Positions 156 through 64,000 of a stretch of 64,000 nt of DNA are shown one piece after another (position 1 is the first letter of the stretch; the number at the start of each line of letters is the position of its first letter). The DNA is from Antedon mediterranea (Eukaryota; Animalia; Echinodermata): contig NC_092678.1 of assembly GCF_964355755.1 (NCBI RefSeq), positions 19,919,365 to 19,983,364 on the forward strand, read 5' to 3'. The translations under genes and the position numbers were made by a program. The notes beneath the pieces are model-generated. The model did no database searches, was not told where the DNA came from, and worked only from the letters and a program-made list of their open reading frames with translations.

Positions 156-1110
<955 letters not shown>

Positions 1111-2314: not shown

Positions 2315-5300
2315 ATGCCTATTTCTCTTTGTTGTGGAATTAAACTCCGCCTTCCCAAATGTTTACGTAGAACAAGAATAGGTAAGTTGATTACGTTACA
2401 ACATAGGCCTAGTCTGATTCTAACTTTAGGCAAGTTATCCTATCTAGGCGCACACCTATGCCTAATTTGATTATATTACAATGATCTGCGCACTTAATTA
2501 GTAACTTGTGTTGTTTTCTTTACATTTTTGGTAGGCCTATGTACACTTTAAAAAGATAAGATAAGGTTAAAAGTATTAAAACTATGGGAAAATGGCATAA
2601 TTATTGTTAAAAATAATGTATGTTTATGTAACCATAGTTACTGAACTTGTAGTGGTGCGTATAAAATGTCGCGTATGAAAGAGCATCAGCGCGGTGTTAC
2701 TAGTTGACCTCTCTCACGCCGTCACGAGATCACAAAAAGCGGTGTGACGTATGCAAAACAATGAATTGCTCTGGGGGCGTGGCCTGTATTATAATCATAA
2801 TGCTATTGGTGTAAAGTTGGGCGCTTATTTACGTCATAAGAAAAGTAAAACAAAAATCGTGATACGTCGTCGTGTGTGTTTGTTGTTGTGTGTGCGCGGC
2901 GGAGGCGTGACGCGGTCATACCGCCGGTGGTGGTCGGTCGGATCATGGATTCTTTAATCCATGGTCGGATGATCCGTGGACGTGGTATAGTTGGTACGCT
3001 TAGACCTAGGGCCTAGCTAGGCTAGGCCTAGTAGTAGAAGCAGTGTAGTAGGCCTACTGGCCAAAACCTCATATAGATAGATAGGCCTATAGTTATTGCC
3101 CAAGGTATACTATGGCTACTATGCAAACATGCCTAACTAGCTCTAGGCTAGGCCTAGGCCTAGGCTAGACCTAGTCCTAGCCTAGCTAGTAGGGCCTGGC
3201 CCTAGAGGCTACTTTAGGCTAGCCTAGAGAACTAGCCTCTAGGTAGCCTCTAGGTAGGGCCAGCAGGCTAGGCCTAGGCTAGGCCCTATCTATAGTATAG
3301 GCCTAGTTAGGCTAGCCTACCTAGCTAGGCCTATACTATAGATAGGGCCTTGCCTAGTCTAGCCTAGGCCTACAATTCTACTATCTAGTACTAGGCTAGT
3401 AGGCATAAGCATGTAGGTCTAGCTAGGCTGCCTATATAGGCCTAGGGCCTAGCTAGGCCTACCTACCCCTACTCTAGGGCTAGGCTAAAGCTAGTGTAGC
3501 TGGCTAGACTAGCTAGGGCCTGCTAGTTCCTCTAGCTAGCTAGGCTAGCCTCTAGCCAGCTACACTAGCTTAGCCTCTAGCTTTAGCCTAGGGTAGGTAG
3601 GCCTAGTTAGTATATAGGCAGCCTAGTAGAGGCCTTAGCCTAGTACTAGCTAGTAGAAGGCTAGCCTCTAGCTAGGGCTAAGCCTACTAGGCTAGACTAG
3701 CTACTAGCCTAGTATTAATTATTAGTTTAATAGTTAGTATTACGAGGCCTCTCACTAGGCGATCCTATACTAAAGCTACCCAAGACTGAGTATAAGAGCC
3801 TACCTAGCTAGGAGGCCTGGCTAGTATTTTAGGCTGGGCCCTATCTAGCCTAGTTGATATCCCTTCCCAACCAACACTCTATCTTCACACATTGCAAGGC
3901 CGTAGCGAGAGGTTAAAATCAGACGAAGCAATACTTTTAATATAAATTATATTATATAAAATATGACCTCAGCTTCTTAGTGGGGTGGGTTGTGAAATTT
4001 TCAGAGATAATTCGAGCGCCTCTTCTTCCTCATGCTAACTACGGCACTGCATTGTTCATAGTGGTATCTTTTTTTGTAGTTGTAGCAGTCTTACCAGCAG
4101 GACCCCCAGCCCCAGTAGTAGCAGCAGCAACAGGAGATGAAGAAGATGAATCCTATAGACCAATAGATGGAAGTTCAAACAATCAATCATCATCTTCACC
4201 TGCTGCAGGTAGGCCAGTCTTGCATAATAGCCTATCATTTACTATTTTCCTTAGGACACCACAGATTTGTATACAGTATAGGGTGTGCTGTTGGAATATA
4301 TTTACTTTAGAATTAAAGATTAATTTGAAAAACTTTTATCACAGTCAAGTCACTCACTCCTGGCCTGAATGACTTATTACAACTAACAAGCGCAAAACAT
4401 CTGCGATTGACACTAAAACTAGACACGTCCACCACCTGCCAGACATCGCAACTTGCAGTCAAGAGCACCAATGACGAAGATGTACAACTCAAAAAGCGTG
4501 CAGCTACATTTGTGCAAGATATCCTAGCCACTGCAGTTGCAAAATGCCAAGCCATAGAACAAGACGAGAACAACACTGACCGTAAGAACATACACTACCA
4601 TCATGCCTAAAAGTAGTTCAAGCCATCAAAGGTGGAGCATGTGTACCTAAAGCCAACCTCTCCCCAACACCCAACCCAGTCCACCTCGTTAAATAAACCA
4701 ATCTGGAATTTGATGATGAATAATGGTTATTTGAATTTTTTTTAAATAAAGTTTTTTTTTTATCTTAATCATTATTAAAAGAATTGTATAATAATTGATT
4801 ATAATTGTTGACATATCAAAATAATTGTAATAATATCTTTATAGACAAGGCAACTATAGCACAGCAGCCAGCTGAAACCTCCACCTCTGATGAGGATGTC
4901 GAGCTTGACAATCTGGCAACAAGTCTTGTGGAAGAAACTTTGTCAATAGTAATGGCAGAACAACTGGCCACTGTTCATAACAATGAAGCACATCACCCAA
5001 CTGCAGGTAGGCCAGTCTTGCATAATAGCTTATCATTTAATATTTTCTTTAGGACATCACACATGATTTGTTTTAGTGTATATTAGTATGCTGTTGGAAT
5101 ATATTACTTTCTAATTAAAGTTTAATTTGAAAAAACTTTTATCACAGTCAACTCACTCACTCCTGACCTGAATGACTCATTACAACTAACAAGCGCAAAA
5201 CATCTGCGATCGACACAAAAACTAGACACGTCCACCTGCCAGACATCGCAACTTGCAGTGAAGAGCATCAATGACGAAGATATGCAAGTCAAACAGCGTG

Positions 5301-8300
5301 CAGCTACCTTTGTGCAAGATGTCCTAGCCACTGCAGTTGCAAAATGCCAAGCCATAGAACAAGACGAGAACAACACTGACCGTAAGAACATACACTACCA
5401 TCATGCCTAAGCCAATTGAAAGGCCTACCACTAGCATAAATAGATATCGAAAAGTAATTCAAGCCATCAAATGTGGAGCATGTGTACCTAAAGACAACCT
5501 CTCTCCAACACCCACCCCAGTCCACCTCGTTAAATAAACCAATCAATCTCTCATCTTTTTTTTATAATTGATTAAATTCTCTTTCACATTTATATTTAGA
5601 TTTGTTCTTAGAATTGAAGGACAAAATATATAGCTCATGTTTTTCTGTTTTCTTTTCGTCTCTTAATTTAATTTTCTTGTTTTGTTTTTAGATAAACAAT
5701 TTGATGATGAATAACGGTTATTTAAATTTTTTTTAAATAAAGTCATTTTTTTTTATCTTAATCATAAAAGAATTGTATAATAATTGATTATAATTTTAGA
5801 CATATCAAAATAATTGTAATAATATCTCTATAGACAAGGCAACTGAAGCACAGCAGCCAGCTGAAACCTCCACCTCTGATGAGGATGTCGAGCTTGACAA
5901 TCTGGCAACAAGTCTTGTGGAAGAAACTTTGTCAATAGTAATGGCAGAACAACTGGCCACTGTTCATAACAATGAAGCACATCATCCAACTGCAGGTAGG
6001 CCAGCCTTGCATAATAGCTTATCATCTAATATTTTCTTTAGGACATCCCACATGATTTGTTTTAGTGTATATTGGTATGCTGTTGGAATATCTTTATAAT
6101 TAAAGTTTAATTTGAAAAAACTTTTATCACAGTCAACTCACTCACTCCTGGCCTGAATGACTCATTACAACTAACAAGCGCAAAACATCTGCGATCGACA
6201 CAAAAACTAGACACGTCCACCTGCCAGACATCGCAACTTGCAGTCAAGAGCATCAACGACGAAGATATACAAGTCAAACAGCGTGCAGCTACATTTGTAC
6301 AAGATGTCCTAGCCACTGCAGTTGCAAAATGCCAAGCCATAGAACAAGACAAGAACAACACTGACCGTAAGAACATACACTACCATCATGCCTAAGTCAA
6401 TTGATAGGCCTACCACTAGCATAAATAGATATCGAAAAGTAGTTCAAGCCATCAAAGGTGGAGTATGTGTACCTAAAGCCAACCTCTCCCCAACACCCAC
6501 CACAGTCCACCTCGTTAAATAAACCAATCAATCTCTCATCTTTTTTTTATAATTGATTAAATTCTTGTTCACATTTATATTTAGATTTCTTCTCAGAATT
6601 GAAGGACAAAATATATAGCTCATGTTTTTCTGTTTCCTTTTCATCTCTTAATTTAATTTTCTTGTTTTGTTTTTAGATAAAGAATTTGATGATGAATAGC
6701 GGTTAATTAAATTTTTTTTAAATAAAGTCATTGTTGTTTTATCTTAATCATAAAAGAATTGTATAATAATTGATTATAATTTTTGACATATCAAAATAAT
6801 TGTAATAATATCTCTATAGACAAGGCAACTGAAGCACAGCAGCCAGCTGAAACCTCCACCTCTGATGAGGATGTCGAACTTGACAATCTGGCAACAAGTC
6901 TTGTGGAAGAAACTTTTTCAATAGTAATGGCAGAACAACTGGCTACTGTTCATAACAATGAAACACATCATCCAACTGCAGGTAGGCCAGTCTTGCATAA
7001 TAGCTTATCATTTAATATTTTCTTTAGGACATCCCACATGATTTGTTTAAGTGTATATTAGTATGCTGTTGGAATATATTACTTTAGAATTAAAGTTTAA
7101 TTTGAAAAAACTTTTATCACAGTCAACTCACTCACTCCTGGCCTGAATGACTCATTACAACTAACAAGCGCAAAACATCTGCGATCGACACAAAAACTAG
7201 ACACGTCCACCTGCCAGACATCGCAACTTGCAGTGAAGAGCATCAATGACGAAGATATGCAAGTCAAACAGCGTGCAGCTACCTTTGTGCAAGATGTCCT
7301 AGCCACTGCAGTTGCAAAATGCCAAGCCATAGAACAAGACGAGAACAAGACTGACCGTAAGAACATACACTACCATCATGCCTAAGCCAATTGAAAGGCC
7401 TACCACTAGCATAAATAGATATCGAATAGTAGTTCAAGCCATCAAAGGTGGAGCATGTGTACCTAAAGCCAACCTCTCCCCAACACCCACCCCAGTCCAC
7501 CTCGTTAAATAAACCAATCAATCTCTCATCTTTTTTTTATAATTGGTTAAATTCTCTTTCACATTTATATTTAGATTTGTTCTCAGAATTGAAGGACAAA
7601 ATATATAGCTCATGTTTTTCTGTTTTCTTTTCGTCTCTTAATTTAATTTTCTTGTTTTGTTTTTAGATAAACAATTTGATGATGAATAACGGTTATTAAA
7701 ATATTTTTTTAATAAAGTCATTTTTTTTTATCTTAATCATAAAAGAAATGTATAATAATTGATTATAATTTTAGACATATCAAAATAATTGTAATAATAT
7801 CTTTATAGACAAGGCAACTGAAGCACAGCAGCCAGCTGAAACCTCCACCTCTGATGAGGATGTCGAGCTTGACAATCTGGCAACAAGTCTTGTGGAAGAA
7901 ACTTTGTCAATAGTAATGGCAGAACAACTGGCCACTGTTCATAACAATGAAGCACATCATCCAACTGCAGGTAGGCCAGCCTTGCATAATAGCTTATCAT
8001 CTAATATTTTCTTTAGGACATCCCACATGATTTGTTTTAGTGTATATTGGTATGCTGTTGGAATATATTACTTTATAATTAAAGTTTAATTTGAAAAAAC
8101 TTTTATCACAGTCAACTCACTCACTCCTGACCTGAATGACTCATTACAACTAACAAGCGCAAAACATCTGCGATCGACACAAAAACTAGACACGTCCACC
8201 TGCCAGACATCGCAACTTGCAGTGAAGAGCATCAATGACGAAGATATGCAAGTCAACCAGCGTGCAGCTACCTTTGTGCAAGATGTCCTAGCCACTGCAG

Positions 8301-11300
8301 TTGCAAAATGCCAAGCCATAGAACAAGACGAGAACAACACTGACCGTAAGAACATACACTACCATCATGCCTAAGTCAATTGATAGGCCTACCACTAGCA
8401 TAAATAGATATCGAAAAGTAGTTCAAGCCATCAAAGGTGGAGCATGTGTACCTAAAGCCAACCTCTCCCCAACACCCACCCCAATCCACCTCGTTAAATA
8501 AACCAATCAATCTCTCATCTTTTTTTTATAATTGGTTAAATTCTCTTTCACATTTATATTTAGATTTGTTCTCAGAATTAAAGGACAAAATATATAGCTC
8601 ATATTTTTCTGTTTCCTTTTCATCTCTTAATTTAATTTTCTCTTTTTGTTTTTAGATAAAGAATTTGATTATGAATAATGGTTATTTAAATTTTTTTAAA
8701 TTAAAGTCATTTTTTTTATCTTAATCATAAAAGAATTGTATAATAATTGATTATAATTTTTGACATATCAAAATAATTGTAATAATATCTCTATAGACAA
8801 GGCAACTGAAGCACAGCAGCCAGCTGAAACCTCCACCTCTGATGAGGATGTCGAGCTTGACAATCTGGCAACAAGTCTTGTGGAAGAAACTTTGTCAATA
8901 GTAATGGCAGAACATCTGGCCACTGTTCATAACAATGAAGCACATCATCCAACTACAGGTAGGCCAGCCTTGCATATTAGCTTATCATTTAATATTTTCT
9001 TTAGGGCATCCCACATGATTTGTTTTAGTGTATATTAGTATGCTGTTGGAATATATTACTTTATAATTAAAGTTTAATTTGAAAAAACTTTTATCACAGT
9101 CAACTCACTCACTCCTGGCCTGAATGACTCATTACAACTAACAAGCGCAAAACATCTGCGATCGACACTAAAACTAGACACGTCCACTTGCCAGACATCA
9201 CAACTTGCAGTCATGAGCACCATTGATGAAGATGTGCATCTCAAACAGCAGGCAGCTACCTTTGTACAAGATGTCCTATCAACTGAAGTTGCAAAATGTC
9301 AAGACGAGAACAACACTGACCGTAAGAACATACACTATCATCAATTGATAACATACAGTATTTATTTGTAGATATCTAAAAGAAGTTTTAAGCTGTCAAA
9401 AAGGAGTGCGTGTACCTGTAGCCAATCTCTCTCCCAACACCCACCCAGTTAAATAGACCAATCAATCTTTCATCTTTTGTTTTTTTAAACAGATTCTTGT
9501 TTACATTTGTTCATTCTCATTTTTAAAGGAGACAGTATATTAAGCTCATCTTTTTCTGTTTTCTTTTCATCTCTTAATTTCCTTTTCATGCTTTGTTTTT
9601 CGACGAAAAATGTTATGATGAATAAAGAAAATTTGAATAAAAAAAAGATAAATATTCATGATTTGTTGTTATAATTGTTATTATTATTGTATAATTTTTA
9701 GAATATTAATTAAATAGTAATAATTATCAAACAAATTTCTCTATAGACAAGGCAACTGAAGCCCAGCAGAATACTGCAGCAGAGCAGACAACTGCAGAAA
9801 AGCAAACAACTGCAGCCTCCATCTCTGAGGAGGATGAGGAGCTCGACAAGCTTTCAAATTCTGTTGTTCAAGATGTTTTGTCGAAGGTCGCAGAAAATCT
9901 TGCCACCGCCAACCTGCTAACTGAAAAACAGCAGCCACCTGAATCAGCCTACACGGATACAGTAGAGAAAGATCAGAGGAAAGGTACAATATGACTTTTC
10001 ATTCATATGAATTTTCATTTAAGCTTAACCAATCATTTCCATACTGTTATATTTTTTAACAATTTGAAATCTATATTGTAACATATCAGTAACTGAATTT
10101 GCTTTTACCCTGCGCTAGATCTCACAACCGATACTTGCACAGAATACGGAGACCCTTTCTTCGGAATCAAAGGAGATACTGCTATGGCAGGTGGACAATT
10201 TGTAAGTAACTCATAGACCTCACAAAAACAGGTACACAACAAGCAGTGGCATGAGCCTATTTCAATGTACTTAATTTACTGAATGTGAAAAGAGTGAAAA
10301 AATAATTCGGCTTCCCAAAAATAATTTAAAAATAAAGAAGATCTAGGCTATCAAACAACAGGACACTGACCATCCTTGTACATAAAACGTTTTGTGCGGA
10401 TGCGATATGATTATGCCCCACCCCACAACATTTCATTAGAGTCTATGTGACTGGTAGTACCAAAACGGTACCATCCATAATCCGTATTATTTTTTTAAAA
10501 TTTTTACTATGTTTGAATTTTTTATAGGCATCAGATTGCAAAAGCATCCAGGAACAGAATGATGAAATGGATGAAGCATTTTATAAGTATGGAGTGGAAA
10601 GTGATTATGACTGGATAGACATGGGACCTTCAGACCCAAGCGATGAAGAACCAGATGCCTGGGTGAGGCAGAGAGCTATCGCCCAGAGATTAGCAGCCAA
10701 GGCTGCGAGGAGATCTTTGAATATTAACCCTGGTAAGCCAACTGAAGCCTCCATCTGTGATGATGATGAGGAGCTGAACAATCATCCAACTACAGGTAGG
10801 TCAGCCTTTCATAATAGCTTATCATTTAATATTTTCTTTAGGACATCCCACATGATTTGTTTTATTGTATATTAGTATGCTGTTGGAATATATTACTTTA
10901 TAATTAAAGTTTAATTTGAAAAAACTTTTATCACAGTCAACTCACTCACTCCTGGCCTGAATGACTCATTACAACTAACAAGCGCAAAACATCTGCGATC
11001 GACACTAAAACTAGACACGTCCACCTGCCAGACATCACAACTTGCAGTCATGTTCACCAATGATGAAGATGTGCATCTCAAACAGCAAGCAGCTACCTTT
11101 GTACAAAATGTCCTATCAACTGCAGTTGCAAAATGTCAATACGAGAACAACACTGACCGTAAGAACATACACTATCATCAATTGGTAACATACAATATTT
11201 ATTTGTAGATATCTAAAAGAAGTTTTAAGCTGTAAAAAAGGAGTGTGTGTACCTGTAGCCAATCTCTCTCCCAACACCCACCCAGTTAAATAGACCAATC

Positions 11301-12817
11301 AATTTTTCATCTTTTGTTTTTTTAAACAGATTCTTGTTTACATTTGTTCATTGTAATTTTTAAAGGAGACAGTATATTAAGCTCATCTTTTTCTGTTTTC
11401 TTTTCATCTCTTAATTTCCTTTTCATGCTTTGTTTTTCGACGAAAAATGTTATGATGAATAAAGAACATTTGAATAAAAAAAAGATAAATATTCATGATT
11501 TGTTGTTATAATTGTTATTATTATTGTATAATGTTTAAAATATTAATTAATTGTAATAATTATCAAACAAATTTCTCTATAGACAAGGCAACTGAAGCCC
11601 AGCAGAATACTGCAGCACAGCAGACTACTGCAGAAAAACAAACAACTGCAGCCTCCATCTCTGAGGAGGATGAGGAGCTCGACAAGCTTTCAAATTCTGT
11701 TGTTCAAGATGTTTTGTCAAAGGTCGCAGAAAATCTTGCCACCGCCAACCTGCTAACTGAAGAACAGCAGCCACCTGAATCAGCCAACACGGATACAGTA
11801 GAGAAAGATCAGAGGAAAGGTACAATATGACTTTTCATTCATATGAATTTTCATTTAAGCCTTAACCAATCATTTCCTATACTGTTATTTTTTTTAACAA
11901 TTTGAAATCTATATTATAACATATCAGTAACTGAATTTCCTTTTACCCTGCCCTAGATCTCACAACCGATATTTGCACAGAATACGGAGACCCTTTCTTC
12001 GGAATCAAAGGAGATACTGCTATGGCAGGTGGACAATTTGTAAGTAACTCATAGACCTCACAAAAACAGGTACACAACAAGCAGTGGCATGAGCCTATTT
12101 CAATGAATGTGAAAAGAGTGAAAAAATATTTCGGCTTCCCAAAAATAATTTAAAAATAAAGAAGATCTAGGCTATCAAACAACAGGACAATGACCATCCT
12201 TGTACATAAAACGTTTTGTGCGGATGCGATATGATTATGCCCCACCCCACAACATTTCATTAGAGTCTATGTGACTGGTAGTACCAAAACGGTACCATCC
12301 ATAATCCATATTATTTTTTTTAAGTTTTTACTATGTTTGAATTTTTTATAGGCATCAGATTGCAAAAGCATCCAGGAACAGAATGACGAAATGGATGAAG
12401 CATTTTATAAGTATGGAGTGGAAAGTGACTATGACTGGATAGACATGGGACCTACAGACCCAAGCGACGAAGAACCAGATGCCTGGGTGAGGCAGAGAGC
12501 TATCGCCCAAAGATTAGCAGCTAAGGCTGCTATGAAATCATCGAATATTAACCCTGGTAAGTTTATTTTTATTTTTAAAAGCTGATTTGTTTGTCTACGC
12601 TTTACAAATTCTTCCCTATTAGTAGGGCCTCATGAGTACTAAAAATATTCATTCATTTTAATGTTTAGACCAACACGAGCTACAAGACGTCGACAATGAT
12701 GAGGAAACAAATTGCCGACCAATAGTAGTTGACATGACATCACTGGCTGACATGACAGCAGATGATGATCCAAACTTAACCTATCATGATGCTACGATAG
12801 ACCAATACAATTACTGA
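2315..12817 (+). CDS. Copy 1: multi-exon acidic repeat protein (~1294 aa predicted), putative lipid-anchored multivalent AKAP-like scaffold with 14 helix exons
   Basis: Exons: ex1 2315-2381, ex2 4080-4208, B 4345-4581, A 4845-5006, then four further B/A pairs at ~990 bp period, B' ~9100, C 9747-9983, D 10119-10201, E+ 10528-10795, B', C, D, E, F 12669-12817 (TGA). All junctions are GT-AG, the phases are compatible (1-1; D 1-0; E 0-1) and the summed length 3885 nt is divisible by 3. AATAAA at 12928. Function inferred from motifs. Confidence 0.8.
2650..2990. promoter_or_regulatory. CpG-rich motif cluster in intron 1 (TGACG half-sites, TTACGTCA, GGGGCGTGGC GC-box), repeated in each copy
   Basis: Local CpG enrichment in AT-rich DNA, with Sp/KLF-like and CRE-like motifs kept in all five copies. 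Confidence 0.4.
2995..3855. repeat. CTAG/AGGCCT/TAG-rich low-complexity palindromic tract in intron 1 (also ~17455-18115, ~29570-30170, ~43695-44335, ~55310-55962)
   Basis: Dense ctag, taggccta and gctagc words. Perfect 26 bp inverted repeat at 3281-3306/3325-3350. Confidence 0.9.
3895..4049. mobile_element. ~155 bp MITE-like element in intron 1 (also 18167-18322, 30212-30367, 44379-44534, 56011-56166)
   Basis: Terminal inverted repeats caaggccgtag ... ctacggccctg (10/11 match in copies 2-5), flanked by the direct repeat CATTG on both sides. No coding capacity. Confidence 0.6.
4345..9320 (+). repeat. Internal ~990 bp tandem module (exon A 162 nt + intron + exon B 234 nt + intron). Equivalent blocks at ~18610-23580, ~30650-35635, ~44820-47790, ~56455-61390
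   Basis: acaaggcaactgaagcacagcagcc recurs at ~4845 (variant), 5834, 6820, 7809 and 8797, and likewise in the other copies. Confidence 0.97.
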
Positions 12818-12927
12818 ATACTTTAATCATATTTACAATGGACTAATTATAATCATTTCAATATTAATTTTACGATAAAGATACATTATTTGATATGTTT
12901 GTTTTATGAAATTTACAGTTGTGCAAT

Positions 12928-12933
12928 AATAAA
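12928..12933 (+). terminator. Probable polyadenylation signal AATAAA of copy 1 (conserved after each complete copy)
   Basis: gtgcaatAATAAAtg ~110 nt after the stop, followed by a T/GT-rich tract. Confidence 0.5.
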
Positions 12934-14682: not shown

Positions 14683-14942
14683 TGTGTTTTGTATGCAACA
14701 TGAGGGTTGAGGGATGGGGAAGAGGATGGGTGCAAAGACGAAAAATTTGTGTTTTGTATGCAACATAAGGGTTGAGGGATGGGGAAGAGGATGGGTGCAA
14801 AGACGAACAATTTGTGTTTTGTATGCAACATGAGGGTTGAGGGATGGGGAAGAGGATGGGTGCAAAGACGAACAATTTGTGTTTTGTATGCAACATGAGG
14901 GTTTAGGGATGGGGAAGAGGATGGGTGCAAAGACGAACAATT
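14683..14942 (+). repeat. 65 bp minisatellite x4, G-rich
   Basis: gtatgcaaca at 14691, 14756, 14821 and 14886. The unit contains gggttgagggatggggaagaggatggg. Confidence 0.95.
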
Positions 14943-16673: not shown

Positions 16674-16681
16674 TGACGTCA
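16674..16681. promoter_or_regulatory. CRE palindrome TGACGTCA ~170 bp upstream of the MPISLCC ATG (also 28799-28806, 42912-42919, 54536-54543; AGACGTCA variant at 2154-2161)
   Basis: Exact match to the CREB/ATF consensus in four of five copies. Function not shown. Confidence 0.5.
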
Positions 16682-16844
16682 CACAATCACCATGGATAGA
16701 AATGTAAACGTACGCACGAAACAAAACCTCAAATGGCAACTAGCGACAGCTTGTGCCGGATGGCTGGTGAATAGCCCGATACATATCGGTCGTTTTTCCA
16801 GTCTTTACAACCGTTTTCGGAAGTATTTTAATAAATTAATTGAT

Positions 16845-19800
16845 ATGCCTATTTCTCTTTGTTGTGGAATTAAACTCCGCCTTCCCAAATGTTTACGTAG
16901 AACAAGAATAGGTAAGTTGATTACGTTACATTACAACATAGGCCTAGTCTGATTCTAACTTTAGGCAAGTCATCCTATCTAGGCACCATGCCTAATTTAG
17001 ATTATAATTATTACAACACTTAATTAGTAACTGGTGTTGTTTTCTTTACATTTTTGGTAGGCCTATGTACACTTTAAAAAAATAAGGTTAAAAGTATTAA
17101 AACTATGGGAAAATGGCATAATTATTGTTACAATAATGTTTGTTTATGTAACCGTAGTTACTGAACTTGTAGTGGTGCGTATAAAATGGTCGCGTAAAAG
17201 AGCATCAGCGCGGTCTTAGTTGACCTCTCACGTCACGAGATCACAAAAAGCGGTGTGACGTATGTAAAACAATGAATTGCTCTTGGGGGCGTGGCCTGTA
17301 TTATAATCACAATGCTATTGGTGTAAAGTTAGGCGCTTAATTACGTCATAAAATGAAAAAAAAATCGTGATACGTTGCGAGTGTGACGTGTGGTGGGGGG
17401 TGTGTTTGTCGAGAGTCGGTGGTTGATCGGGGTCGGATCCGTGGACGTGGTAGTTTGTACTAGCTTAGGCCTTAGGCTAGCTATAGGCCTACTAGGCCTA
17501 GTAGTAGAAGCAGTAGGCCTACTGGCCAAAACCTCAAAACATGCCTAGGTAGCGGTACTACTACTAGCCTACTACAGTAGTACTACTAGTATAGGGTAGG
17601 CCTAGTACTAGCCTAGCCTAGCTAGCCTATAGAGGGCCTAGCTAGACTAGAGCCTGCCCTGCGTGAGGCTAGCCTAGCCTCAGCTCAGGCCTAGCTAGCT
17701 AGAGTAGTAGGTCTAGACTCTCTAGGCCTAATGCTAGTCATCTAGGCCCTAGCTAGGCTAGCCTCTAGCCAGCTACACTAGCTTAGCCTCTCTATAGCTT
17801 TAGCCTAGGCTAGTAGGGTAGGTAGGCCTAATTAATTAGTATATAGAATTATAGGTTAGGCAGCCTAACCTAGAGGCCTACTACTAGGCTAGCCTAGGCC
17901 TTAGCCTAATACTAGCTAGTAGAAGGCTAGCCTCTAGCTAGGGCTAGGCCTACTATTATAGGCTAGACTAGCCTAGTATTAACTATTAGTTTAATAGTTT
18001 AGTATTACGAGGCCTCTCACTAGGCGATCCTATACTAAGCTACCCAAGAGTATAAGAGCCTACCTAGCTAGGAGGCCTGGCTAGTATTTTAGGCTGTGCC
18101 CTATCTAGCCTACAGTAGTTGATATCCCTTCCCAACCAACACTCTATCTTCACACGTGAGACATTGCAAGGCCGTAGCGAGAGGTTAAAATGAGACGAAG
18201 CAATATGCTTTTAATATAATTATATTATATAAAATATGACCTCAGCTTCTTAGTGGGCTGGGTTGTGAAATTTTCAGAGATAATTCGAGCGCCTCTTCTT
18301 CCTCATGCTAACTACGGCCCTGCATTGTTCATATTGGTATCTTTTTTTGTAGTTGTAGCAGTCTTACCAGCAGGACCCCCAGCCCCAGTAGTAGCAGCAG
18401 CAACAGGAGATGAAGAAGATGAATCCTATAGACCAATAGATGGAAGTTCGAACATTCAATCATCATCTTCACCTGCTGCAGGTAGGCCAGCCTTGCATAA
18501 TAGCCTATCATTTACTATTTTCCTTAGGACACCACAGATTTGTATACAGTATATAGGGTATGCTGTTTACTTTAGAATTAAAGATTAATTTGAAAAACTT
18601 TTATCACAGTCAACTCACTCACTCCTGGCCTGAATGACTTATTACAACTAACAAGCGCAAAACATCTGCGATTGACACTAAAACTAGACACGTCCACCTG
18701 CCAGACATCGCAACTTGCAGTCAAGAGCACCAATGACGAAGATGTGCAACTCAAAAAGCGTGCAGCTACATTTGTACAAGATGTCCTAGCCACTGCAGTT
18801 GCAAAATGCCAAGCCATAGAACAAGACGAGAACAACACTGACCGTAAGAACATACACTACCTTTATGCCTAAGCCAATTGATAGGCCTACCACTAGCATA
18901 AATAGATATCGAAATAATTTTCTTGTTTTGTTCTTAATCTTAGATAAAGAATTTGATGATGAATAATTGTTATTTGAATTTTTTTTAAATAAAGTCTTTT
19001 TTTTATCTTAATCATAAAAGAATTGTATAATAATTGATTATAATTTTAGACATATCAAAATAATTGTAATAATATCTCTTTAGACAAGGCAACTGAAGCA
19101 CAGCAGCCAGCTGAAACCTCCACCTCTGATGAGGATGTCGAGCTTGACAATCTGGCCACAAGTCTTGTGGAAGAAACTTTGTCAGTAGTAATGGCAGAAC
19201 AACTGGCAACTGTTCATAACAATAAAGCACATTATCCAACTGCAGGTAGGCCAGCCTTGCATAATAGGTTATCATTTAATATTTTCTTTAGGACATCCCA
19301 CATGATTTGTTTTAGTGTATATTAGTATGCTGTTGGAATATATTACTTTAGAATTAAAGTTTAATTTGAAGAAACTTTTATCACAGGCAACTCACTCACT
19401 CTTGGCCTGAATGATTCATTACAACTAACAAGCACAAAACATCTGCGATCGTCACAAAAACTAGACACGTCCACCTGCCAGACATCTCAACTTGCAGTCA
19501 AGAGCACCAATGACGAAGATGTACAACTCAAAAAGCGTGCAGCTACATTTGTGCAAGATATCCTAGCCACTGCAGTTGCAAAATGCCAAGCCATAGAACA
19601 AGACGAGAACAACACTGACCGTAAGAACATACACTACCATCATGCCTAAGCCAATTGAAAGGCCTACCACTAGCATAAATAGATATCGAAAAGTAATTCA
19701 AGCCATCAAATGTGGAGCATGTGTACCTAAAGACAACCTCTCCCCAACACCCAACCCAGTCCACCTCGTTAAATAAACCAATCAATCTCTCATCTTTTTT

Positions 19801-22800
19801 TTATAATTGATTAAATTCTCTTTCACATTTATATTTAGATTTGTTCTCAGAATTGAAGGACAAAATATATAGCTCATGTTTTTCTGTTTTCTTTTCGTCT
19901 CTTAATTTAATTTTCTTGTTTTGTTTTTAGATAAACAATTTGATGATGAATAACGGTTATTTAAATTTTTTTTAAATAAAGTCATTTTTTTTTATCTTAA
20001 TCATAAAAGAATTGTATAATAATTGATTATAATTTTAGACATATCAAAATAATTGTAATAATGTCTCTTTAGACAAGGCAACTGAAGCACAGCAGCCAGC
20101 TGAAACCTCCACCTCTGATGAGGATGTCGAGCTTGACAATCTGGCAACAAGTCTTGTGGAAGAAACTTTGTCAATAGTAATGGCAGAACACCTGGCCACT
20201 GTTCATGACAATGAAGCACATCATCCAACTGCAGGTAGGCCAGCCTTGCATAATAGCTTATCCTCTAATATTTTCTTTAGGACATCCCACATATTTTTTT
20301 TTTAGTTTATATTAGTATGCTGTTGGAATATATTACTTTATAATTAAAGTTTAATTTAAAAAAACTTTTATCACAGTCAACCCACTCACCCCTAGCCTGA
20401 ATGACTCATTACAACTAACAAGCGCAAAACATCTGCGATCGTCACAAAAACTAGACACGCCCACCTGCCAGACATCTCAACTTGCAGTCAAGAGCACCAA
20501 CGACAAAGATGTACAACTCAAAAAGCGTGCAGCTACATTTGTGCAAGATATCCTAGCCACTGCAGTTGCAAAATGCCAAGCCATAGAACAAGACGAGAAC
20601 AACACTGACCGTAAGATCATACACTACCATCATGCCTAAGCCAATTGAAAGGCCTACCACTAGCATAAATAGATATCGAAAAGTAATTCAAGCCATCAAA
20701 TGTGGAGCATGTGTACCTAAAGACAACCTCTCCCCAACACCCAACCCAGTCCACCTCGTTAAATAAACCAATCAATCTCTCATCTTTTTTTTATAATTGG
20801 TTAAATTCTCTTTCACATTTATATTTAGATTTGTTCTCAGAATTGAAGGACAAAATATATAGCTCATGTTTTTCTGTTTTCTTTTCGTCTCTTAATTTAA
20901 TTTTCTTGTTTTCTTTTTAGATAAACAATTTGATGATGAATAACGGTTATTTAAATTTTTTTTAAATAAAGTCATTTTTTTTTATCTTAATCATAAAAGA
21001 ATTGTATAATAATTGATTATAATTTTAGACATATCAAAATAATTGTAATAATATCTTTATAGACAAGGCAACTGAAGCACAGCAGCCAGCTGAAACCTCC
21101 ACCTCTGATAAGGATGTCGAACTTGACAATCTGGCAACAAGTCTTGTGGAAGAAACTTTGTCAATAGTAATGGCAGAACACCTGGCCACTGTTCATAACA
21201 ATGAAGCACATCATCCAACTGCAGGTAGGCCAGCCTTGCATAATAGCTTATCATCTAATATTTTCTTTAGGACATCCCACATATTTTTTTTTTTAGTTTA
21301 TATTAGTATGCTGTTGGAATATATTACTTTATAATTAAAGTTTAATTTGAAAAAACTTTTATCACAGTCAACCCACTCACCCCTAGCCTGAATGACTCAT
21401 TACAACTAACAAGCGCAAAACATCTGCGATCGTCACAAAAACTAGACACGTCCACCTGCCAGACATCTCAACTTGCAGTCAAGAGCACCAATGACGAAGA
21501 TGTACAACTCAAAAAGCGTGCAGCTACATTTGTGCAAGATATCCTAGCCACTGCAGTTGCAAAATGCCAAGCCATAGAACAAGACGAGAACAACACTGAC
21601 CGTAAGAACATACACTACCATCATGCCTAAGCCAATTGAAAGGCCTACCACTAGCATAAATAGATATCGAAAAGTAATTCAAGCCATCAAATGTGGAGCA
21701 TGTGTACCTAAAGACAACCTCTCCCCAACACCCACCCCAGTCCACCTCGTTAAATAAACCAATCAATCTCTCATCTTTTTTTTATAATTGGTTAAATTCT
21801 CTTTCACATTTATATTTAGATTTGTTCTCAGAATTGAAGGACAAAATATATAGCTCATGTTTTTCTGTTTTCTTTTCGTCTCTTAATTTAATTTTCTTGT
21901 TTTGTTTTTAGATAAACAATTTGATGATGAATAATGGTTATTTAAATTTTTTTTAAATAAAGTCATTTTTTTTTATCTGAATCATAAAAGAATTGTATAA
22001 TAATTGATTATAATTTTAGACATATCAAAATAATTGTAATAATATCTCTATAGACAAGGCAACTGAAGCACAGCAGCCAGCTGAAACCTCCACCTCTGAT
22101 GAGGATGTCGAGCTTGACAATCTGGCAACAAGTCTTGTGGAAGAAACTTTGTCAATAGTAATGGCAGAACACCTGGCCACTGTTCATAACAATGAAGCAC
22201 ATCATCCAACTGCAGGTAGGCCAGCCTTGCATAAAAGCTTATCATCTAATATTTTCTTTAGGACATCCCACATATTTTTTTTTTTAGTTTATATTAGTAT
22301 GCTGTTGGAATATATTACTTTATAATTAAAGTTTAATTTGAAAAAACTTTTATCACAGTCAACCCACTCACCCCTAGCCTGAATGACTCATTACAACTAA
22401 CAAGCGCAAAACATCTGCGATCGTCACAAAAACTAGACACGTCCACCTGCCAGACATCTCAACTTGCAGTCAAGAGTACCAATGACGAAGATGTACAACT
22501 CAAAAAGCGTGCAGCTACATTTGTGCAAGATATCCTAGCCACTGCAGTTGCAAAATGCCAAGCCATAGAACAAGACGAGAACAACACTGACCGTAAGAAC
22601 ATACACTACCATCATGCCTAAGCCAATTGAATGGCCTACCACTAGCATAAATAGATATCGAAAAGTAATTCAAGCCATCAAATGTGGAGCATGTGTACCT
22701 AAAGACAACCTCTCCCCAACACCCACCCCAGTCCACCTCGTTAAATAAACCAATCAATCTCTCATCTTTTTTTTATAATTGGTTAAATTCTCTTTCACAT

Positions 22801-25800
22801 TTATATTTAGATTTGTTCTCAGAATTGAAGGACAAAATATATAGCTCATGTTTTTCTGTTTTCTTTTTGTCTCTTAATTTAATTTTCTTGTTTTGTTTTT
22901 AGATAAACAATTTGATGATGAATAACGGTTATTTAAATTTTTTTTAAATAAAGTCTTTTTTTTTATCTTAATCATAAAAGAATTGTATAATAATTGATTA
23001 TAATTTTAGACATATCAAAATAATTGTAATAATATCTTTATAGACAAGGCAACTGAAGCACAGCAGCCAGCTGAAACCTCCACCTCTGATGAGGATGTCG
23101 AGCTTGACAATCTGGCAACAAGTCTTGTGGAAGAAACTTTGTCAATAGTAATGGCAGAACAACTGGCCACTGTTCATAACAATGAAGCACATCATCCAAC
23201 TGCAGGTAGGCCAGCCTTGCATTATAGCTTATCATCTAATATTTTCTTTAGGACATCCCACATGATTTGTTTTAGTGTATATTAGTATGCTGTTGGAATA
23301 TATTACTTTAGAATTAAAGTTTAATTTGAAAAAACTTTTATCACAGGCAACTCACTCACTCTTGGCCTTAATGGCTCATTACAATTAACAAGCGCAAAAC
23401 ATCTGCGATCGACACAAAAACTAGACACGTGTACCTGTGAGACATCACAATTTGCAGTCAAGACCAACTATAATGAGGATGTACAACTCAAACAGCGTGT
23501 AGCTACATTTATACAAGATGTCCTAGCCACTGCAGTTGCAAAATGTCAAGCCATAGAGCAAGACGAGAACAACACTGACCGTAAGAACATACACTACCTT
23601 TATGCCTAAGCCAATTGATAGGCGGCCTAACCAACCGATTTCCTAAACTGTTATATTTATTAACAATTAGAAATCTATATTATAACATATCAATAACCCA
23701 ATTTGTTTTTGCTCTCCCCCTCCTCCTAGACCTCACAACCTATACTTGTACAGATCGATGGTCAGAATATGGAGACACTTTCTTCAGATTGAAAGGAAAT
23801 ACTATGGCAGGTGGCCACTTTGTAAGTAACTCATAGACCCTGCCCCACAAAAACATGTACAAAGGCAGTGGCATGTGCCTCTTTCAATGTACGCAGTTTA
23901 ATGAATGTCAAAAAAGAGGAAAACAAATTCTGCTTCCCAAAAATAATTTTTTCCCAACAAAAGCAAAAACCAGAAAAAGAAAATTTAGGCAAAATAAAGA
24001 CGATCTAGGCTACCAAACAACAGGACACTGACCTTCACTACATAAAACGTTATTATGCGGATGCTATACGATTATGCCCAACCCCACATTAGGCGACTGG
24101 TAGTACCACGGTACCATCCTTAGTCCATATTATTTTTTTTTTTTTTACTATGTTTGAATTTTTTATAGGCATCAGATTGCAAAAGCATCCAGGAACAGAA
24201 TGACGAAATGGATGAAGCATTTTATAAGTATGGAGTGGAAAGTGATTATGACTGGATAGACATGGGACCTTCAGACCCAAGCGATGAAGAACCAGATGCC
24301 TGGGTGAGGCAGAGAGCTATCGCCCAGAGATTAGCAGCCAAGGCTGCAAGGAGATCTTTGAATATTAACCCTGGTAAGCCAACTGAAGCCTCCATCTGTG
24401 ATGATGATGAGGAGCTGAACAATCATCCAACTACAGGTAGGTCAGCCTTGCATAATAGCTTATCATTTAATATTTTCTTTAGGACATCCCACATGATTTG
24501 TTTTAGTGTATATTAGTATGCTGTTGGAATATATTACTTTATAATTAAAGTTTAATTTGAAAAAACTTTTATCACAGTCAACTCACTCACTCCTGGCCTG
24601 AATGACTCATTACAACTAACAAGCGCAAAACATCTGCGATCGACACTAAAACTAGACACGTCCACCTGCCAGACATCACAACTTGCAGTCATGAGCACCA
24701 TTGATGAAAATGTGCATCTCAAACAGCAGGCAGCTACCTTTGTACAAGATGTCCTATCAACTGCAGTTGCAAAATGTCAAGACGAGAACAACACTGACCG
24801 TAAGAACATACACTATCATCAATTGATAACATACAGTATTTATTTGTAGATATCTAAAACTTAAAAGAAGTTTTAAGCTGTAAAAAAGGAGTGTGTACCT
24901 GTAGCCAATCTCTCTCCCAACACCCACCCAGTTAAATAGACCAATCAATCTTTCATCTTTTGTTTTTTTAAACAGATTCTTGTTTACATTTGTTCATTCT
25001 AATTTTTAAAGGAGACAGTATATTAAGCTCATCTTTTTCTGTTTTCTTTTCATCTCTTAATTTCCTTTTCATGCTTTGTTTTTCGACGAAAAATTTTATG
25101 ATGAATAAAGAAAATTTGAATAAAAAAAGATAAATATTCATGATTTGTTGTTATAATTGTTATTATTATTGTATAATCTTTAGAATATTAATTAATTGTA
25201 ATAATTATCAAACAAATTTCTCTATAGACAAGGCAACTGAAGCCCAGCAGAATACTGCAGCAGAGCAGACAACTGCAGAAAAGCAAACAACTGCAGCCTC
25301 CATCTCTGAGGAGGATGAGGAGCTCGACAAGCTTTCAAATTCTGTTGTTCAAGATGTTTTGTCGAAGGTCGCAGAAAATCTTGCCACCGCCAACCTGCTA
25401 ACTGAAGAACAGCAGCCACCTGAATCAGCCTACACGGATACAGTAGAGAAAGATCAGAGGAAAGGTACAATATGACTTTTCATTCATATGAATTTTCATT
25501 TAAGCCTTAACCAATCATTTCCATACTGTTATTTTTTTTAACAATTTCAAATCTATATTATAACATATCAGTAACGGAATTTCCTTTTACCCTGCCCTAG
25601 ATCTCACAACCGATACTTGCACAGAATACGGAGACCCTTTCTTCGGAATCAAAGGAGATACTGCTATGGCAGGTGGACAATTTGTAAGTAACTCATAGAC
25701 CTCACAAAAACAGGTACACAACAAGCAGTGGCATGAGCCTATTTCAATGTACTTAATTTACTGAATGTGAAAAGAGTGAAAAAATAATTCGGCTTCCCAA

Positions 25801-26455
25801 AAATAATTTAAAAATAATGAAGATCTAGGCTATCAAACAACAGGACAATGACCATCCTTGTACATAAAACGTTTTGTGCGTATGCGATATGATTATGCCC
25901 CACCCCACAACATTTCATTAGAGTCCACGGTACCATCCATAATCCGTATTATTTTTTTAAAGTTTTTACTATGTTTGAATTTTTTATAGGCATCAGATTG
26001 CAAAAGCATCCAGGAACAGAATGACGAAATGGATGAAGCATTTTATAAGTATGGAATGGAAAGTGACTATGACTGGATAGACATGGGACCTACAGACCCA
26101 AGCGACGAAGAACCAGATGCCTGGGTGAGGCAGAGAGCTATCGCCCAAAGATTAGCAGCTAAGGCTGCTATGAAATCATCGAATATTAACCCTGGTAAGT
26201 TTATTTTTATTTTTAAAAGCTGATTTGTTTGTCTACGCTTTACAAATTCTTCCCTATTAGTAGGGCCTCATGAGTACTAAAAATATTCATTCATTTTAAT
26301 GTTTAGACCAACACGAGCTACAAGACGTCGACAATGATGAGGAAACAAATTGCCGACCAATAGTAGTTGACATGACATCACTGGCTGACATGACAGCAGA
26401 TGATGATCCAAACTTAACCTATCATGATGCTACGATAGACCAATACAATTACTGA
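16845..26455 (+). CDS. Copy 2 of the repeat-protein gene (~1221 aa predicted; 5 A + 7 B/B' + 1 C helix exons)
   Basis: Order ex1 (16845-16911), ex2 (18353-18481), B,(A,B)x5, D', E+, B', C, D, E, F (26307-26455). Splice sites are conserved and I saw no in-frame stops. Confidence 0.8.
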
Positions 26456-37900: not shown

Positions 37901-38525
37901 GACCATCCTTACATAAAACGTTATGTGCGGATGCGATATGATTATGCCCCACCCCACAACATTTCATTAGAGTCTATGTGACTGGTAGTACCAAAACGGT
38001 ACCATCCATAATCCGTATTATTTTATTTTTTTTATTTACTATGTTTTAATTTTTTATAGGCATCAGATTGCAAAAGCATCCAGGAACAGAATGACGAAAT
38101 GGATGAAGCATTTTATAAGTATGAAGTGGAAAGTGATTATGACTGGATAGACATGGGACCTACAGACCCAAGCGACGAAGAACCAGATGCCTGGGTGAGG
38201 CAGAGAGCTATTGCCCAAAGATTAGCAGCTAAGGCTGCTATGAAATCATCGAATTTTAACCCTGGTAAGTTTATTTTTATTTTTAAAAGCTGATTTGTTT
38301 GTCTACGCTTTACAAATTCTTCCCTATTAGTAGGGCCTCATGAGTACTAAAAATATTCATTCATTTTAATGTTTAGACCAACACGAGCTACAAGACGTCG
38401 ACAATGATGAGGAAACAAATTGCCGACCAATAGTAGTTGACATGACATCACTGGCTGACATGACAGCAGATGATGATCCAAACTTAACCTATCATGATGC
38501 TACGATAGACCAATACAATTACTGA
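28970..38525 (+). CDS. Copy 3 of the repeat-protein gene (~1227 aa predicted; 13 helix exons)
   Basis: Same exon order as copy 2. Exon C (from 37261) has an in-frame 18-nt insertion. Terminal exon ends TAC TGA at 38525. Confidence 0.8.
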
Positions 38526-40859: not shown

Positions 40860-41119
40860 TGTGTTTTGTATGCAACATGAGAGTTGAGGGATGGGGAAGA
40901 GGATGGGTGCAAAGACGAACAATTTGTGTTTTGTATGCAACATGAGGGTTGAGGGATGGGGAAGAGGATGGGTGCAAAGACGAACAATTTGTGTTTTGTA
41001 TGCAACATGAGGGTTGAGGGATGGGGAAGAGGATGGGTGCAAAGACGAACAATTTGTGTTTTGTATGCAACATGAGGGTTTAGGGATGGGGAAGAGGATG
41101 GGTGCAAAGACGAACAATT
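40860..41119 (+). repeat. 65 bp minisatellite x4 (spacer 3 copy)
   Basis: Same unit as 14683-14942. Confidence 0.95.
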
Positions 41120-52543: not shown

Positions 52544-52803
52544 TGTGTTTTGTATGCAACATGAGGGTTGAGGGATGGGGAAGAGGATGGGTGCAAAGAC
52601 GAAAAATTTGTGTTTTGTATGCAACATGAGGGTTGAGGGATGGGGAAGAGGATGGGTGCAAAGACGAACAATTTGTGTTTTGTATGCAACATGAGGGTTG
52701 AGGGATGGGGAAGAGGATGGGTGCAAAGACGAACAATTTGTGTTTTGTATGCAACATGAGGGTTTAGGGATGGGGAAGAGGATGGGTGCAAAGACGAACA
52801 ATT
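52544..52803 (+). repeat. 65 bp minisatellite x4 (spacer 4 copy)
   Basis: Same unit as 14683-14942. Confidence 0.95.
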
Positions 52804-60700: not shown

Positions 60701-63700
60701 TTTGTTTTTAGATAAAGAATTTGATGATGAATAACGGTTATTTAAATTTTTTTTAAATAAAGTCTTTTTTTTTTATCTTAATCATAAAAGAATTGTATAA
60801 TAATTGATTATAATTTTAGACATATCAAAATAATTGTAATAATATCTTTATAGACAAGGCAACTGAAGCACAGCAGCCAGCTGAAACCTCCACCTCTGAT
60901 GAGGATGTCGAGCTTGACAATCTGGCAACAAGTCTTGTGGAAGAAACTTTGTCAATAGTAATGGCAGAACAACTGGCCACTGTTCATAACAATGAAGCAC
61001 ATCATCCAACTGCAGGTAGGCCAGCCTTGCATTATAGCTTATCATCTAATATTTTCTTTAGGACATCCCACATGATTTGTTTTAGTGTATATTAGTATGC
61101 TGTTGGAATATATTACTTTTGAATTAAAGTTTAATTTGAAAAAAACTTTTATCACAGGCAACTCACTCACTCTTGGCCTTAATGGCTCATTACAATTAAC
61201 AAGCGCAAAACATCTGCGATCGACACAAAAACTAGACACGTGTACCTGTGAGACATCACAATTTGCAGTCAAGAGCAACAATAATGAGGATGTACAACTC
61301 AAACAGCGTGTAGCTACATTTATACAAGATGTCCTAGCCACTGCAGTTGCAAAATGTCAAGCCATAGAGCAAGACGAGAACAACACTGACCGTAAGAACA
61401 TACACTACCTTTATGCCTAAGCCAATTGATAGGCGGCCTAACCAACCGATTTCCTAAACTGTTATATTTATTAACAATTAGAAATCTATATTATAACATA
61501 TCAATAACCCAATTTGTTTTTGCTCTCCCCCTCCTCCTAGACCTCACAACCTATACTTGTACAGATCGATGGTCAGAATATGGAGACACTTTCTTCAGAT
61601 TGAAAGGAAATACTATGGCAGGTGGCCACTTTGTAAGTAACTCATAGACCCTGCCCCACAAAAACATGTACACAGGCAGTGGCATGTGCCTCTTTCAATG
61701 TACGCAGTTTAATGAATGTCAAAAAAGAGGAAAACAAATTCTGCTTCCCAAAAATAATTTTTTCCCAACAAAAGCAAAAACCAGAAAAAGAAAATTTAAG
61801 CAAAATAAAGACGATCTAGGCTACCAAACAACAGGACACTGACCTTCACTACATAAAACGTTATTATGCGGATGCTATACGATTATGCCCAACCCCACAT
61901 TAGGCGACTGGTAGTACCACGGTACCATCCATAGTCCATATTATTTTTTTTTTTTTTACTATGTTTGAATTTTTTATAGGCATCAGATTGCAAAAGCATC
62001 CAGGAACAGAATGACGAAATGGATGAAGCATTTTATAAGTATGAAGTGGAAAGTGATTATGACTGGATAGACATGGGACCTTCAGACCCAAGCGATGAAG
62101 AACCAGATGCCTGAGTGAGGCAGAGAGCTATCGCCCAGAGATTAGCAGCCAAGGCTGCAAGGAGATCTTTGAATATTAACCCTGGTAAGCCAACTGAAGC
62201 CTCCATCTGTGATGATGATGAGGAGCTGAACAATCATCCAACTACAGGTAGGTCAGCCTTGCATAATAGCTTATCATTTAATATTTTCTTTAGGACATCC
62301 CACATGATTTGTTTTAGTGTATATTAGTATGCTGTTGGAATATATTACTTTATAATTAAAGTTTAATTTGAAAAAACTTTTATCACAGTCAACTCACTCA
62401 CTCCTGGCCTGAATGACTCATTACAACTAACAAGCGCAAAACATCTGCGATCGACACTAAAACTAGACACGTCCACCTGCCAGACATCACAACTTGCAGT
62501 CATGTTCACCAATGATGAAGATGTGCATCTCAAACAGCAAGCAGCTACCTTTGTACAAAATGTCCTATCAACTGCAGTTGCAAAATGTCAAGACGAGAAC
62601 AACACTGACCGTAAGAACATACACTATTATCAATTGATAACATACAGTATTTATTTGTAGATATCGAAAAGAAGTTTTAAGCTGTAAAAAAGGAGTGTGT
62701 ACCTAAAGCCAACCTCTCTCCCAACACCCACCCAGTTAAATAGATAAATCAATTTTTCATCTTTTGTTTTTTTAAACAGATTCTTGTTTACATTTGTTCA
62801 TTCTAATTTTTAAAGGAGACAGTATATTAAGCTCATCTTTTTCTGTTTTCTTTTCATCTCTTAATTTCCTTTTCATGCTTTGTTTTTCGACGAAAAATGT
62901 TATGATGAATAAAGAACATTTGAATAAAAAAAAGATAAATATTCATGATTTGTTGTTATAATTGTTATTATTATTGTATAATTTTTAGAATATTAATTAA
63001 TTGTAATAATTATCAAACAAATTTCTCTATAGACAAGGCAACTGAAGCCCAGCAGAATACTGCAGCACAGCAGACTACTGCAGAAAAACAAACAACTGCA
63101 GCCTCCATCTCTGAGGAGGATGAGGAGCTCGACAAGCTTTCAAATTCTGTTGTTCAAGATGTTTTGTCGAAGGTCGCAGAAAATCTTGCCACCGCCAACC
63201 TGCTAACTGAAGAACAGCAGCCACCTGAATCAGCCTACACGGATACAGTAGAGAAAGATCAGAGGAAAGGTACAATATGACTTTTCATTCATATGAATTT
63301 TCATTTAAGCCTTAACCAATCATTTCCATACTGTTATTTTTTTTAACAATTTCAAATCTATATTATAACATATCAGTAACAGAATTTCCTTTTACCCTGC
63401 CCTAGATCTCACAACCGATACTTGCACAGAATACGGAGACCCTTTCTTCGGAATCAAAGGAGATACTGCTATGGCAGGTGGACAATTTGTAAGTAACTCA
63501 TAGACCTCACAAAAACAGGTACACAACAAGCAGTGGCATGAGCCTATTTCAATGTACTTAATTTACTGAATGTGAAAAGAGTGAAAAAATAATTCGGCTT
63601 CCCAAAAATAATTTAAAAATAAAGAAGATCTAGGCTATCAAACAACAGGACAATGACCATCCTTGTACATAAAACGTTTTGTGCGTATGCGATATGATTA

Positions 63701-64000
63701 TGCCCCACCCCACAACATTTCATTAGAGTCCACGGTACCATCCATAATCCGTATTATTTTTTTAAAGTTTTTACTATGTTTGAATTTTTTATAGGCATCA
63801 GATTGCAAAAGCATCCAGGAACAGAATGACGAAATGGATGAAGCATTTTATAAGTATGGAATGGAAAGTGACTATGACTGGATAGACATGGGACCTACAG
63901 ACCCAAGCGACGAAGAACCAGATGCCTGGGTGAGGCAGAGAGCTATCGCCCAAAGATTAGCAGCTAAGGCTGCTATGAAATCATCGAATATTAACCCTGG
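54707..64000 (+). CDS. Copy 5 of the repeat-protein gene; in-frame TGA in exon E+ (62112-62114), so truncated or a possible pseudogene; 3' end outside the window
   Basis: Same exon order as copy 2. gatgccTGAgtgagg here versus gatgccTGGgtgagg in all other E exons. Confidence 0.7.

Follow-up and report, generated by a model that had tools for sequence, protein, structure and literature searches.

A young tandem gene family in the crinoid Antedon mediterranea encodes acidic multi-helix proteins that may act as AKAP-like docking scaffolds

A 64,000-nucleotide stretch of the Antedon mediterranea genome (contig NC_092678.1, positions 19,919,365 to 19,983,364 of the forward strand; hereafter the window, numbered from its first letter) contains five tandem genes, each predicted to encode a long acidic protein with 9-14 helices, one per short exon. 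The helices resemble those by which AKAPs bind the dimerization/docking (D/D) domain of PKA regulatory subunits, and the proteins may serve as membrane-tethered multivalent D/D-docking scaffolds, of RII type rather than RI-selective, a reading to which we give about an even chance. Type II PKA is the first-choice partner, a tentative assignment that stands somewhat below an even chance, with non-kinase D/D proteins of the ROPN1L or SPA17 type ranking second. The gene family itself is real, and it is both young and amplified.

When the window was searched in six frames and by BLAST with single exons, 62 helix exons were located on the plus strand (23 of type A, 33 of type B and 6 of type C), which fall into the following gene models.

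2315..12817, plus strand: gene 1; 21 exons, 14 helices (5 A, 7 B, 2 C); 1294 amino acids with the short exon 2, 1319 with the long one
16845..26455, plus strand: gene 2; 20 exons, 13 helices; 1221 amino acids (short exon 2)
28970..38525, plus strand: gene 3; 20 exons, 13 helices; 1227 amino acids
43083..50677, plus strand: gene 4; 16 exons, 9 helices; 957 amino acids
54707..64000, plus strand: gene 5; 13 helices on the 19 exons that the window includes; the final exon falls beyond 64000
62112..62114, plus strand: TGA replacing a Trp codon in the internal D2 exon of gene 5; would truncate the product after 11 of 13 helices

The first-pass annotation had proposed five or more tandem genes with one helix per exon and 9-14 helices each, and the five genes found agree with it (14, 13, 13, 9 and 13 helices). 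All 91 introns of the five models have GT-AG borders, the A, B and C exons are all of symmetric phase 1, and genes 1-4 are stop-free up to their own stop codon, giving four complete open reading frames (ORFs). The order of exons is exon 1, exon 2, three to five B-A pairs, B, then D1/D2 or C/D1/D2, B, C, D1, D2 and F. Comparison of the window with itself shows five repeat units of ~12-14 kb, the best-aligned blocks being 94-98% identical, and an internal 990-bp repeat inside each unit. An acidic run followed by a helix had been described for the three exon types, and all three were recovered on the plus strand; examples from gene 1 are given here together with the C-terminal exons.

4470..4556, plus strand: type-B acidic run and helix, LxxxAxxFVxxI/VLxxAV
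4886..4972, plus strand: type-A acidic run and helix, LxxxAxxLVxxTLxxVM
9824..9910, plus strand: type-C acidic run and helix, LxxxSxxVVxxVLxxVA
12352..12817, plus strand: C-terminal exons D2 and F; Tyr/Trp-rich acidic stretch, short basic helix and acidic tail

The predicted spliced products are acidic proteins of 957-1294 amino acids (short exon 2) with a net charge of -88 to -126. Single-sequence AlphaFold models show a helix at each A, B or C site, coil between the sites and no folded domain, at low confidence (mean pLDDT 45.6 and 36.6; pTM 0.17-0.25). The D1-D2 pair also has an internal duplicate. The D2 exons (12352-12556 and others), present twice per gene, encode acidic residues, then Tyr-x-x-Ile and then a basic helix; Tyr-x-x-Ile behind acidic residues presumably resembles an LC3-interacting motif, and the basic helix could bind calmodulin or membranes. 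Exon F (12669-12817) encodes Tyr-His-Asp-Ala behind an acidic tract, an arrangement that we take to be loosely FFAT-like; since the Tyr is Asp in two database models (P0001 and P0005, see below), this tract is probably not constrained.

The exons appear to have been kept in frame. All four exon length variants (+3, -12, +18 and +9) are multiples of three and no frameshift is present in the 96 exons, whereas in six intron alignments only 20 of 96 gaps are multiples of three and 76 are not. Among exon copies of equal length (the count excludes one B copy of 237 nt and one C copy of 255 nt), 40 synonymous and 85 non-synonymous variants give a pooled ratio of non-synonymous to synonymous variation (pN/pS) of 0.64 (p=0.014). 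The A, B and C exons are homologous, their helix segments agreeing at 27-32 of 54 nt, and because the copies of each type are near-identical the 62 helices count as three diverged observations at most. Genes 2-5 are intermingled in a tree of the 23 A-intron-B units, a pattern that recent unequal exchange would produce. The most recent duplication is a 15.9-kb block (10329-26195 versus 48192-64000) of 98.4% identity, which is too diverged for a simple assembly echo but could conceivably represent uncollapsed haplotypes. The spacers contain four-copy 65-bp arrays at 14679-14943, 40856-41120 and 52540-52804, as well as arrays of a 19-bp unit (9 and 19 copies) at 27643-27821 and 39837-40205, and the presence or absence of these arrays marks which units were duplicated together. 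A transposon or opposite-strand gene behind the repeats was considered and rejected, all seven non-exonic ORFs of at least 100 codons being read-throughs of the 65-bp or 19-bp arrays.

Predicted A. mediterranea models in the databases share the A-B, B-A, D1 and D2 joins with our gene models and join up to eight helices. P0002 (XP_071960899.1) corresponds to the last 399 amino acids of gene 3, P0004 is gene 4 from its residue 3 on and P0003 is part of gene 5, while P0001 and P0005 have no exact match to any of the five genes. P0011 is a 152-amino-acid protein made up of exon 1, the short exon 2 and one B helix, and differs from all five genes at one exon-2 residue. Given this mismatch and the unmatched P0001 and P0005, there are probably additional copies in the neighbourhood on this 26-Mb contig. 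A search with exon D2 gave three relatives among 81 candidates, the named one being an uncharacterized A. mediterranea protein.

The six-position RII-docking pattern is present in 33 of 33 B helices, 6 of 6 C helices and 0 of 23 A helices, in agreement with the earlier observation that B and C fit all six positions and A falls short; the misfit in type A is a Thr (Pro in one copy) at the fourth constrained position. For a stricter test, BLOSUM62 window scores were computed against the AKAP consensus LxxxAxxIVxxAIxxA as printed in the section of PMC3682517 used here (maximum score 28). In the gene 4 protein, the nine highest-scoring windows (13-18 of 28) are its nine helices, and the median per-window tail probabilities are 2.4e-4 for A, 1.1e-4 for B and 6.9e-4 for C. 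The three types share 5-8 of 18 residues, positions 1, 8, 9, 13 and 17 are hydrophobic in all 62 helices, and 60 of the 62 have neither Pro nor a charge at the seven consensus positions. With a 16-residue pattern that had been relaxed by hand, there were 0.01 matches per shuffle and none in 34,496 background residues; as its residue classes were picked after seeing the helices, we rely on the BLOSUM score instead. RI-selective AKAPs have F or Y and then Ala at helix positions 1-2, according to a passage of PMC12083921. Neither F nor Y precedes the first Ala in any of the 62 helices (Leu in 29, Arg in 26, Gln in 6 and Cys in 1), and therefore the helices are not of the RI-selective type. On the partner side, the stand-in D/D domains used match Pfam RIIa and PDB RII chains, and a search for the host RII returned only five relatives of the stand-in D/D. 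Several PKA-R-like metagenome proteins (L008, L017, L035, L038, L043 and L079) apparently have no N-terminal D/D domain and have Gly2 or Cys-Cys starts instead.

The N-terminal part of the proteins is encoded by exons 1 and 2, with a possible extension further upstream.

2315..2381, plus strand: exon 1, identical in all five genes
4005..4079, plus strand: optional 5' extension of exon 2, in frame behind a weak acceptor; 19-residue hydrophobic segment, Kyte-Doolittle mean 2.44-2.51
4080..4208, plus strand: short exon 2 with a T-rich acceptor; no transmembrane segment (maximum 19-residue Kyte-Doolittle mean 1.72); the form used by P0011
16692..16844 (also 28817, 42930 and 54554), plus strand: upstream in-frame ATG and 51 open codons in genes 2-5, CACCATGG context; basic amphipathic helix

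The peptide encoded by exon 1 has a Cys-Cys pair (residues 6-7), one further Cys and a stretch rich in Lys/Arg, features which suggest that it likely acts as an S-acylation and polybasic membrane anchor. The cysteines are present and Gly2 is absent, residue 2 being Pro (or Asp if the upstream ATG is used), so myristoylation is not expected. Exon 2 has three in-frame acceptors. Of 14 nt counted at each acceptor, 11 are pyrimidines and 2 are G at the short one (4080), against 6 pyrimidines and 5 G at the long one (4005), which makes the latter the most G-rich and pyrimidine-poor of 11 acceptors examined. The stronger short acceptor and its use in P0011 point to a chain that is likely cytosolic and held on a lipid anchor. 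The basic helix behind the upstream ATG has a hydrophobic moment of 0.65; in gene 1 this ATG (2172) is out of frame, broken by a 10-nt deletion, and 8 of 207 intergenic ATGs in total stay open for at least 51 codons.

From these features we infer acylation, topology, binding and partner as the steps of a possible mechanism. With the short exon-2 acceptor in use, the product would have no transmembrane segment and would be a cytosolic chain, and with its N-terminal cysteines S-acylated this long, acidic and mostly unfolded chain would hang from the inner face of the membrane. Each helix would fold upon binding and fill the groove of one D/D dimer; as the helices are ~50-80 residues apart, up to 9-14 dimers could be loaded simultaneously on one chain, and the loaded chain would concentrate or buffer PKA at the membrane. 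By analogy with two-site SPHKAP assemblies, high valence might cluster or buffer the kinase. Valence would have been raised by tandem duplication of the phase-1 A+B exon pair and dose by duplication of whole genes, and a one-helix form of 152-153 amino acids would result if the first B exon were read through.

Several results weigh against the scaffold reading. The six-position pattern is permissive, with 1.33 matches per shuffled 957-amino-acid protein and occurrences in 24 of 102 unrelated eukaryotic ORFs. On the stricter score, a shuffled protein reaches B-, A- and C-grade values (18, 16 and 14) in 0.05, 0.14 and 0.46 windows respectively, and 3 of 32,966 windows of unrelated proteins score 18, so that a single helix is only moderately unusual. 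A match of the helices to an RII-binding profile, as the first-pass annotation would lead one to expect, was not obtained: no Pfam AKAP or RII-binding family (those tested included RII-binding, AKAP7, AKAP28 and AKAP110) was hit at E<=10 by 10 exon and 12 helix queries or by six models (partly E<=1), in searches whose HMMER filters lose most weak short matches. No AKAP peptide came up in sequence searches of the PDB (0 hits, and 3 unrelated ones at E 0.5-1.5), Atlas feature searches yielded nothing usable, and no RRxS/T-type PKA site is present in any of the predicted proteins. No relative was found outside A. mediterranea (the only hits, 2 proteins in 1.84 billion representatives and 4 of 3913 candidates, were Antedon proteins) in searches of which the sensitivity is limited by long repetitive queries and short helices, and hence no cross-species conservation backs the helices. 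Selection is weak and, in exon A, absent (pN/pS 1.04), with several small exons near 1, and gene 5 carries the nonsense codon listed above. None of the five genes has a stop in the 75-nt longer form of exon 2, and this form would yield a type II membrane protein with extracellular helices, and with the helices outside the cell the AKAP reading would end. In the six predicted models exon 1 is never connected with more than a single helix, P0011 ending after the first B exon and the other five beginning inside the repeats or in later exons. The AKAP-like scaffold of the first-pass annotation survives in part: the fit to the stricter consensus, the uncharged helix face, the likely cytosolic topology and the lipid-anchor-like N-terminus speak for it, and the missing Pfam and PDB matches, the near-chance occurrence of the six-position pattern taken alone and the splitting of the locus by the database models into a one-helix protein and 3' fragments speak against it.

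It is possible, though we regard it as unlikely, that the helices dock a partner other than a D/D domain, such as a vinculin-head-type bundle, an EF-hand protein or a lipid surface, and that their likeness to AKAPs reflects a 3-4 periodicity that amphipathic helices have in general. The near-chance six-position pattern and the lack of an AKAP profile or structure match are in line with this, and type A aligns in the same register with the vinculin-site consensus LxxAAxxVAxxVxxLIxxA, taken from an excerpt of PMC2242828. Scored against that consensus, however, the helices reach 10-12 of 36, with tail probabilities (2.6e-3 to 3.9e-3) that are 6 to 25 times larger than for the AKAP consensus in all three types, and the Leu position of the vinculin motif is occupied by Lys in C and Thr in B. 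For lipid-surface binding, the modest hydrophobic moments of the helices (0.21-0.37) and their acidic flanks would be a poor match.

Use of the long exon 2 would instead produce a type II membrane or shed acidic glycoprotein, in which a signal anchor would come behind a basic, S-acylated tail in the cytosol and the repeats would be extracellular, comparable to fast-evolving, lineage-specific surface, gamete or skeletal-matrix proteins, an outcome that we consider distinctly unlikely. All 5 genes keep the extension in frame, without a stop and with a strongly hydrophobic segment, basic residues precede this segment and acidic ones follow it, the proteins are highly negatively charged with 11-14 N-glycosylation sequons each, and the family is species-restricted and amplified. 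The extension nevertheless lies behind the acceptor poorest in pyrimidines and richest in G of the 11, P0011 takes the short acceptor, and the five copies are so alike that an open extension means little. The sequons were dropped as a sign of secretion, since 14 were seen and ~13 are expected from composition (hand-worked).

Another explanation is that only the one-helix, AKAP-like membrane product of 152-153 amino acids is abundant, the downstream repeats being a by-product of unequal crossing-over that is separately transcribed or decaying; this too seems quite improbable. P0011 is exactly such a form, an AATAAA is found in the intron after the first B exon in all five genes (a common signal in this AT-rich window, with 119 in total), repeat units have been shuffled between genes, and the near-neutral exon A and the interrupted gene 5 would suit decay. 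Against this, the GTAAG donor is kept in every B exon and the acceptor in every A exon, the exons are free of frameshifts while most intron gaps are not multiples of three, and other predicted models join as many as eight helices.

With respect to regulation of the putative docking scaffolds, one element stands upstream of genes 2-5.

16674..16681 (also 28799, 42912 and 54536), no strand assigned: full cAMP response element (CRE) palindrome TGACGTCA of genes 2-5, located 171 nt before the ATG of exon 1

These four are the only full CRE palindromes in the window, and since the copies are related by descent they count as one event, not four. Their position upstream of genes 2-5 hints at cAMP feedback. 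A more elaborate version of the scaffold reading, in which a CRE-driven and cAMP-inducible membrane PKA sponge would hold 9-14 type II dimers per chain and read-through or splicing would switch between one-site and 14-site forms, is doubtful; if true, such sponge arrays could cluster or phase-separate PKA at the membrane. A CRE variant, TTACGTCA, is found in intron 1 of all five genes (2829, 17341, 29475, 43586 and 55199).

By motif and layout the family would work like an AKAP or a DDIP, and it is a member of none of the sequence-defined AKAP families tested. AKAP18 alpha is an acylated protein. An N-terminal lipid-anchor design followed by an unstructured chain and an anchoring helix is likewise seen in the short membrane isoforms of AKAP7/AKAP18 and in smAKAP (C2orf88/AKAP19), the latter being myristoylated and palmitoylated according to part of PMC13025221, and P0011 has the same layout. 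The crinoid proteins differ in having no Gly2 and no F/Y-Ala RI motif, and no sequence or Pfam match was obtained; the long form moreover has 9-14 helices, and the gene is present in at least five copies.

SPHKAP/SKIP and AKAP11/AKAP220 are likewise long scaffolds that have more than one anchoring helix. Such dual-helix AKAPs are described in portions of PMC12083921 and PMC10460453 as binding two holoenzymes, preferring RI and being vertebrate inventions, and two-site binding by SPHKAP is proposed there to drive large SPHKAP-RI assemblies. The crinoid proteins differ from SPHKAP and AKAP11 in that their 9-14 helices arise from exon duplication, lack the RI motif and show no homology that we could find. 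DDIPs have AKAP-like helices that dock the RIID2, RID2 or DPY-30 domains of non-kinase proteins, and in the sections of PMC12203939 used here they are mostly ancient axonemal or chromatin proteins, whereas the crinoid family is species-restricted and has a membrane-anchor-like N-terminus. The hydrophobic face of the crinoid helices spans positions 1-17, or five turns, which is the length for PKA-R, while DPY-30 ligands have four turns (same sections of PMC12203939). Talin likewise has many amphipathic helices of similar periodicity in one chain (excerpt of PMC2242828), but its helices sit in folded bundles, and the A, B and C helices fit the vinculin consensus less well than that of AKAPs.

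Literature searches, mostly open-access and at title level, turned up no paper in which a multi-helix anchor is described from a crinoid or another echinoderm. In the passages of PMC12083921 and PMC10460453 drawn on above, AKAPs are described with one helix, or two in a small subset, and most AKAP invention is placed in vertebrates. If the scaffold reading is true, the valence of this AKAP would by far exceed that of the two-site ones and would have been reached by exon amplification outside vertebrates, and a 9-14-site anchor in a basal echinoderm would mean that anchoring valence is freely tunable. The natural series of 1, 9, 13 and 14 sites would then allow testing of whether multivalent anchoring buffers, concentrates or condenses PKA. 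Should the helices bind no D/D domain, the locus would be an uncharacterised species-specific repeat family of modest interest.

In intron 1 (2700-3900 and equivalents), a CpG-rich patch precedes a long, degenerate block rich in TAGGCC/CTAG, a region that could conceal an alternative non-coding first exon. Head-to-head with gene 1 lies an exon of an LSM-domain gene (706-831, minus strand, start near 1111; Pfam LSM, E=1.9e-11). The encoded protein is presumably Sm-F-like, and this neighbour provides a synteny anchor for other echinoderms.

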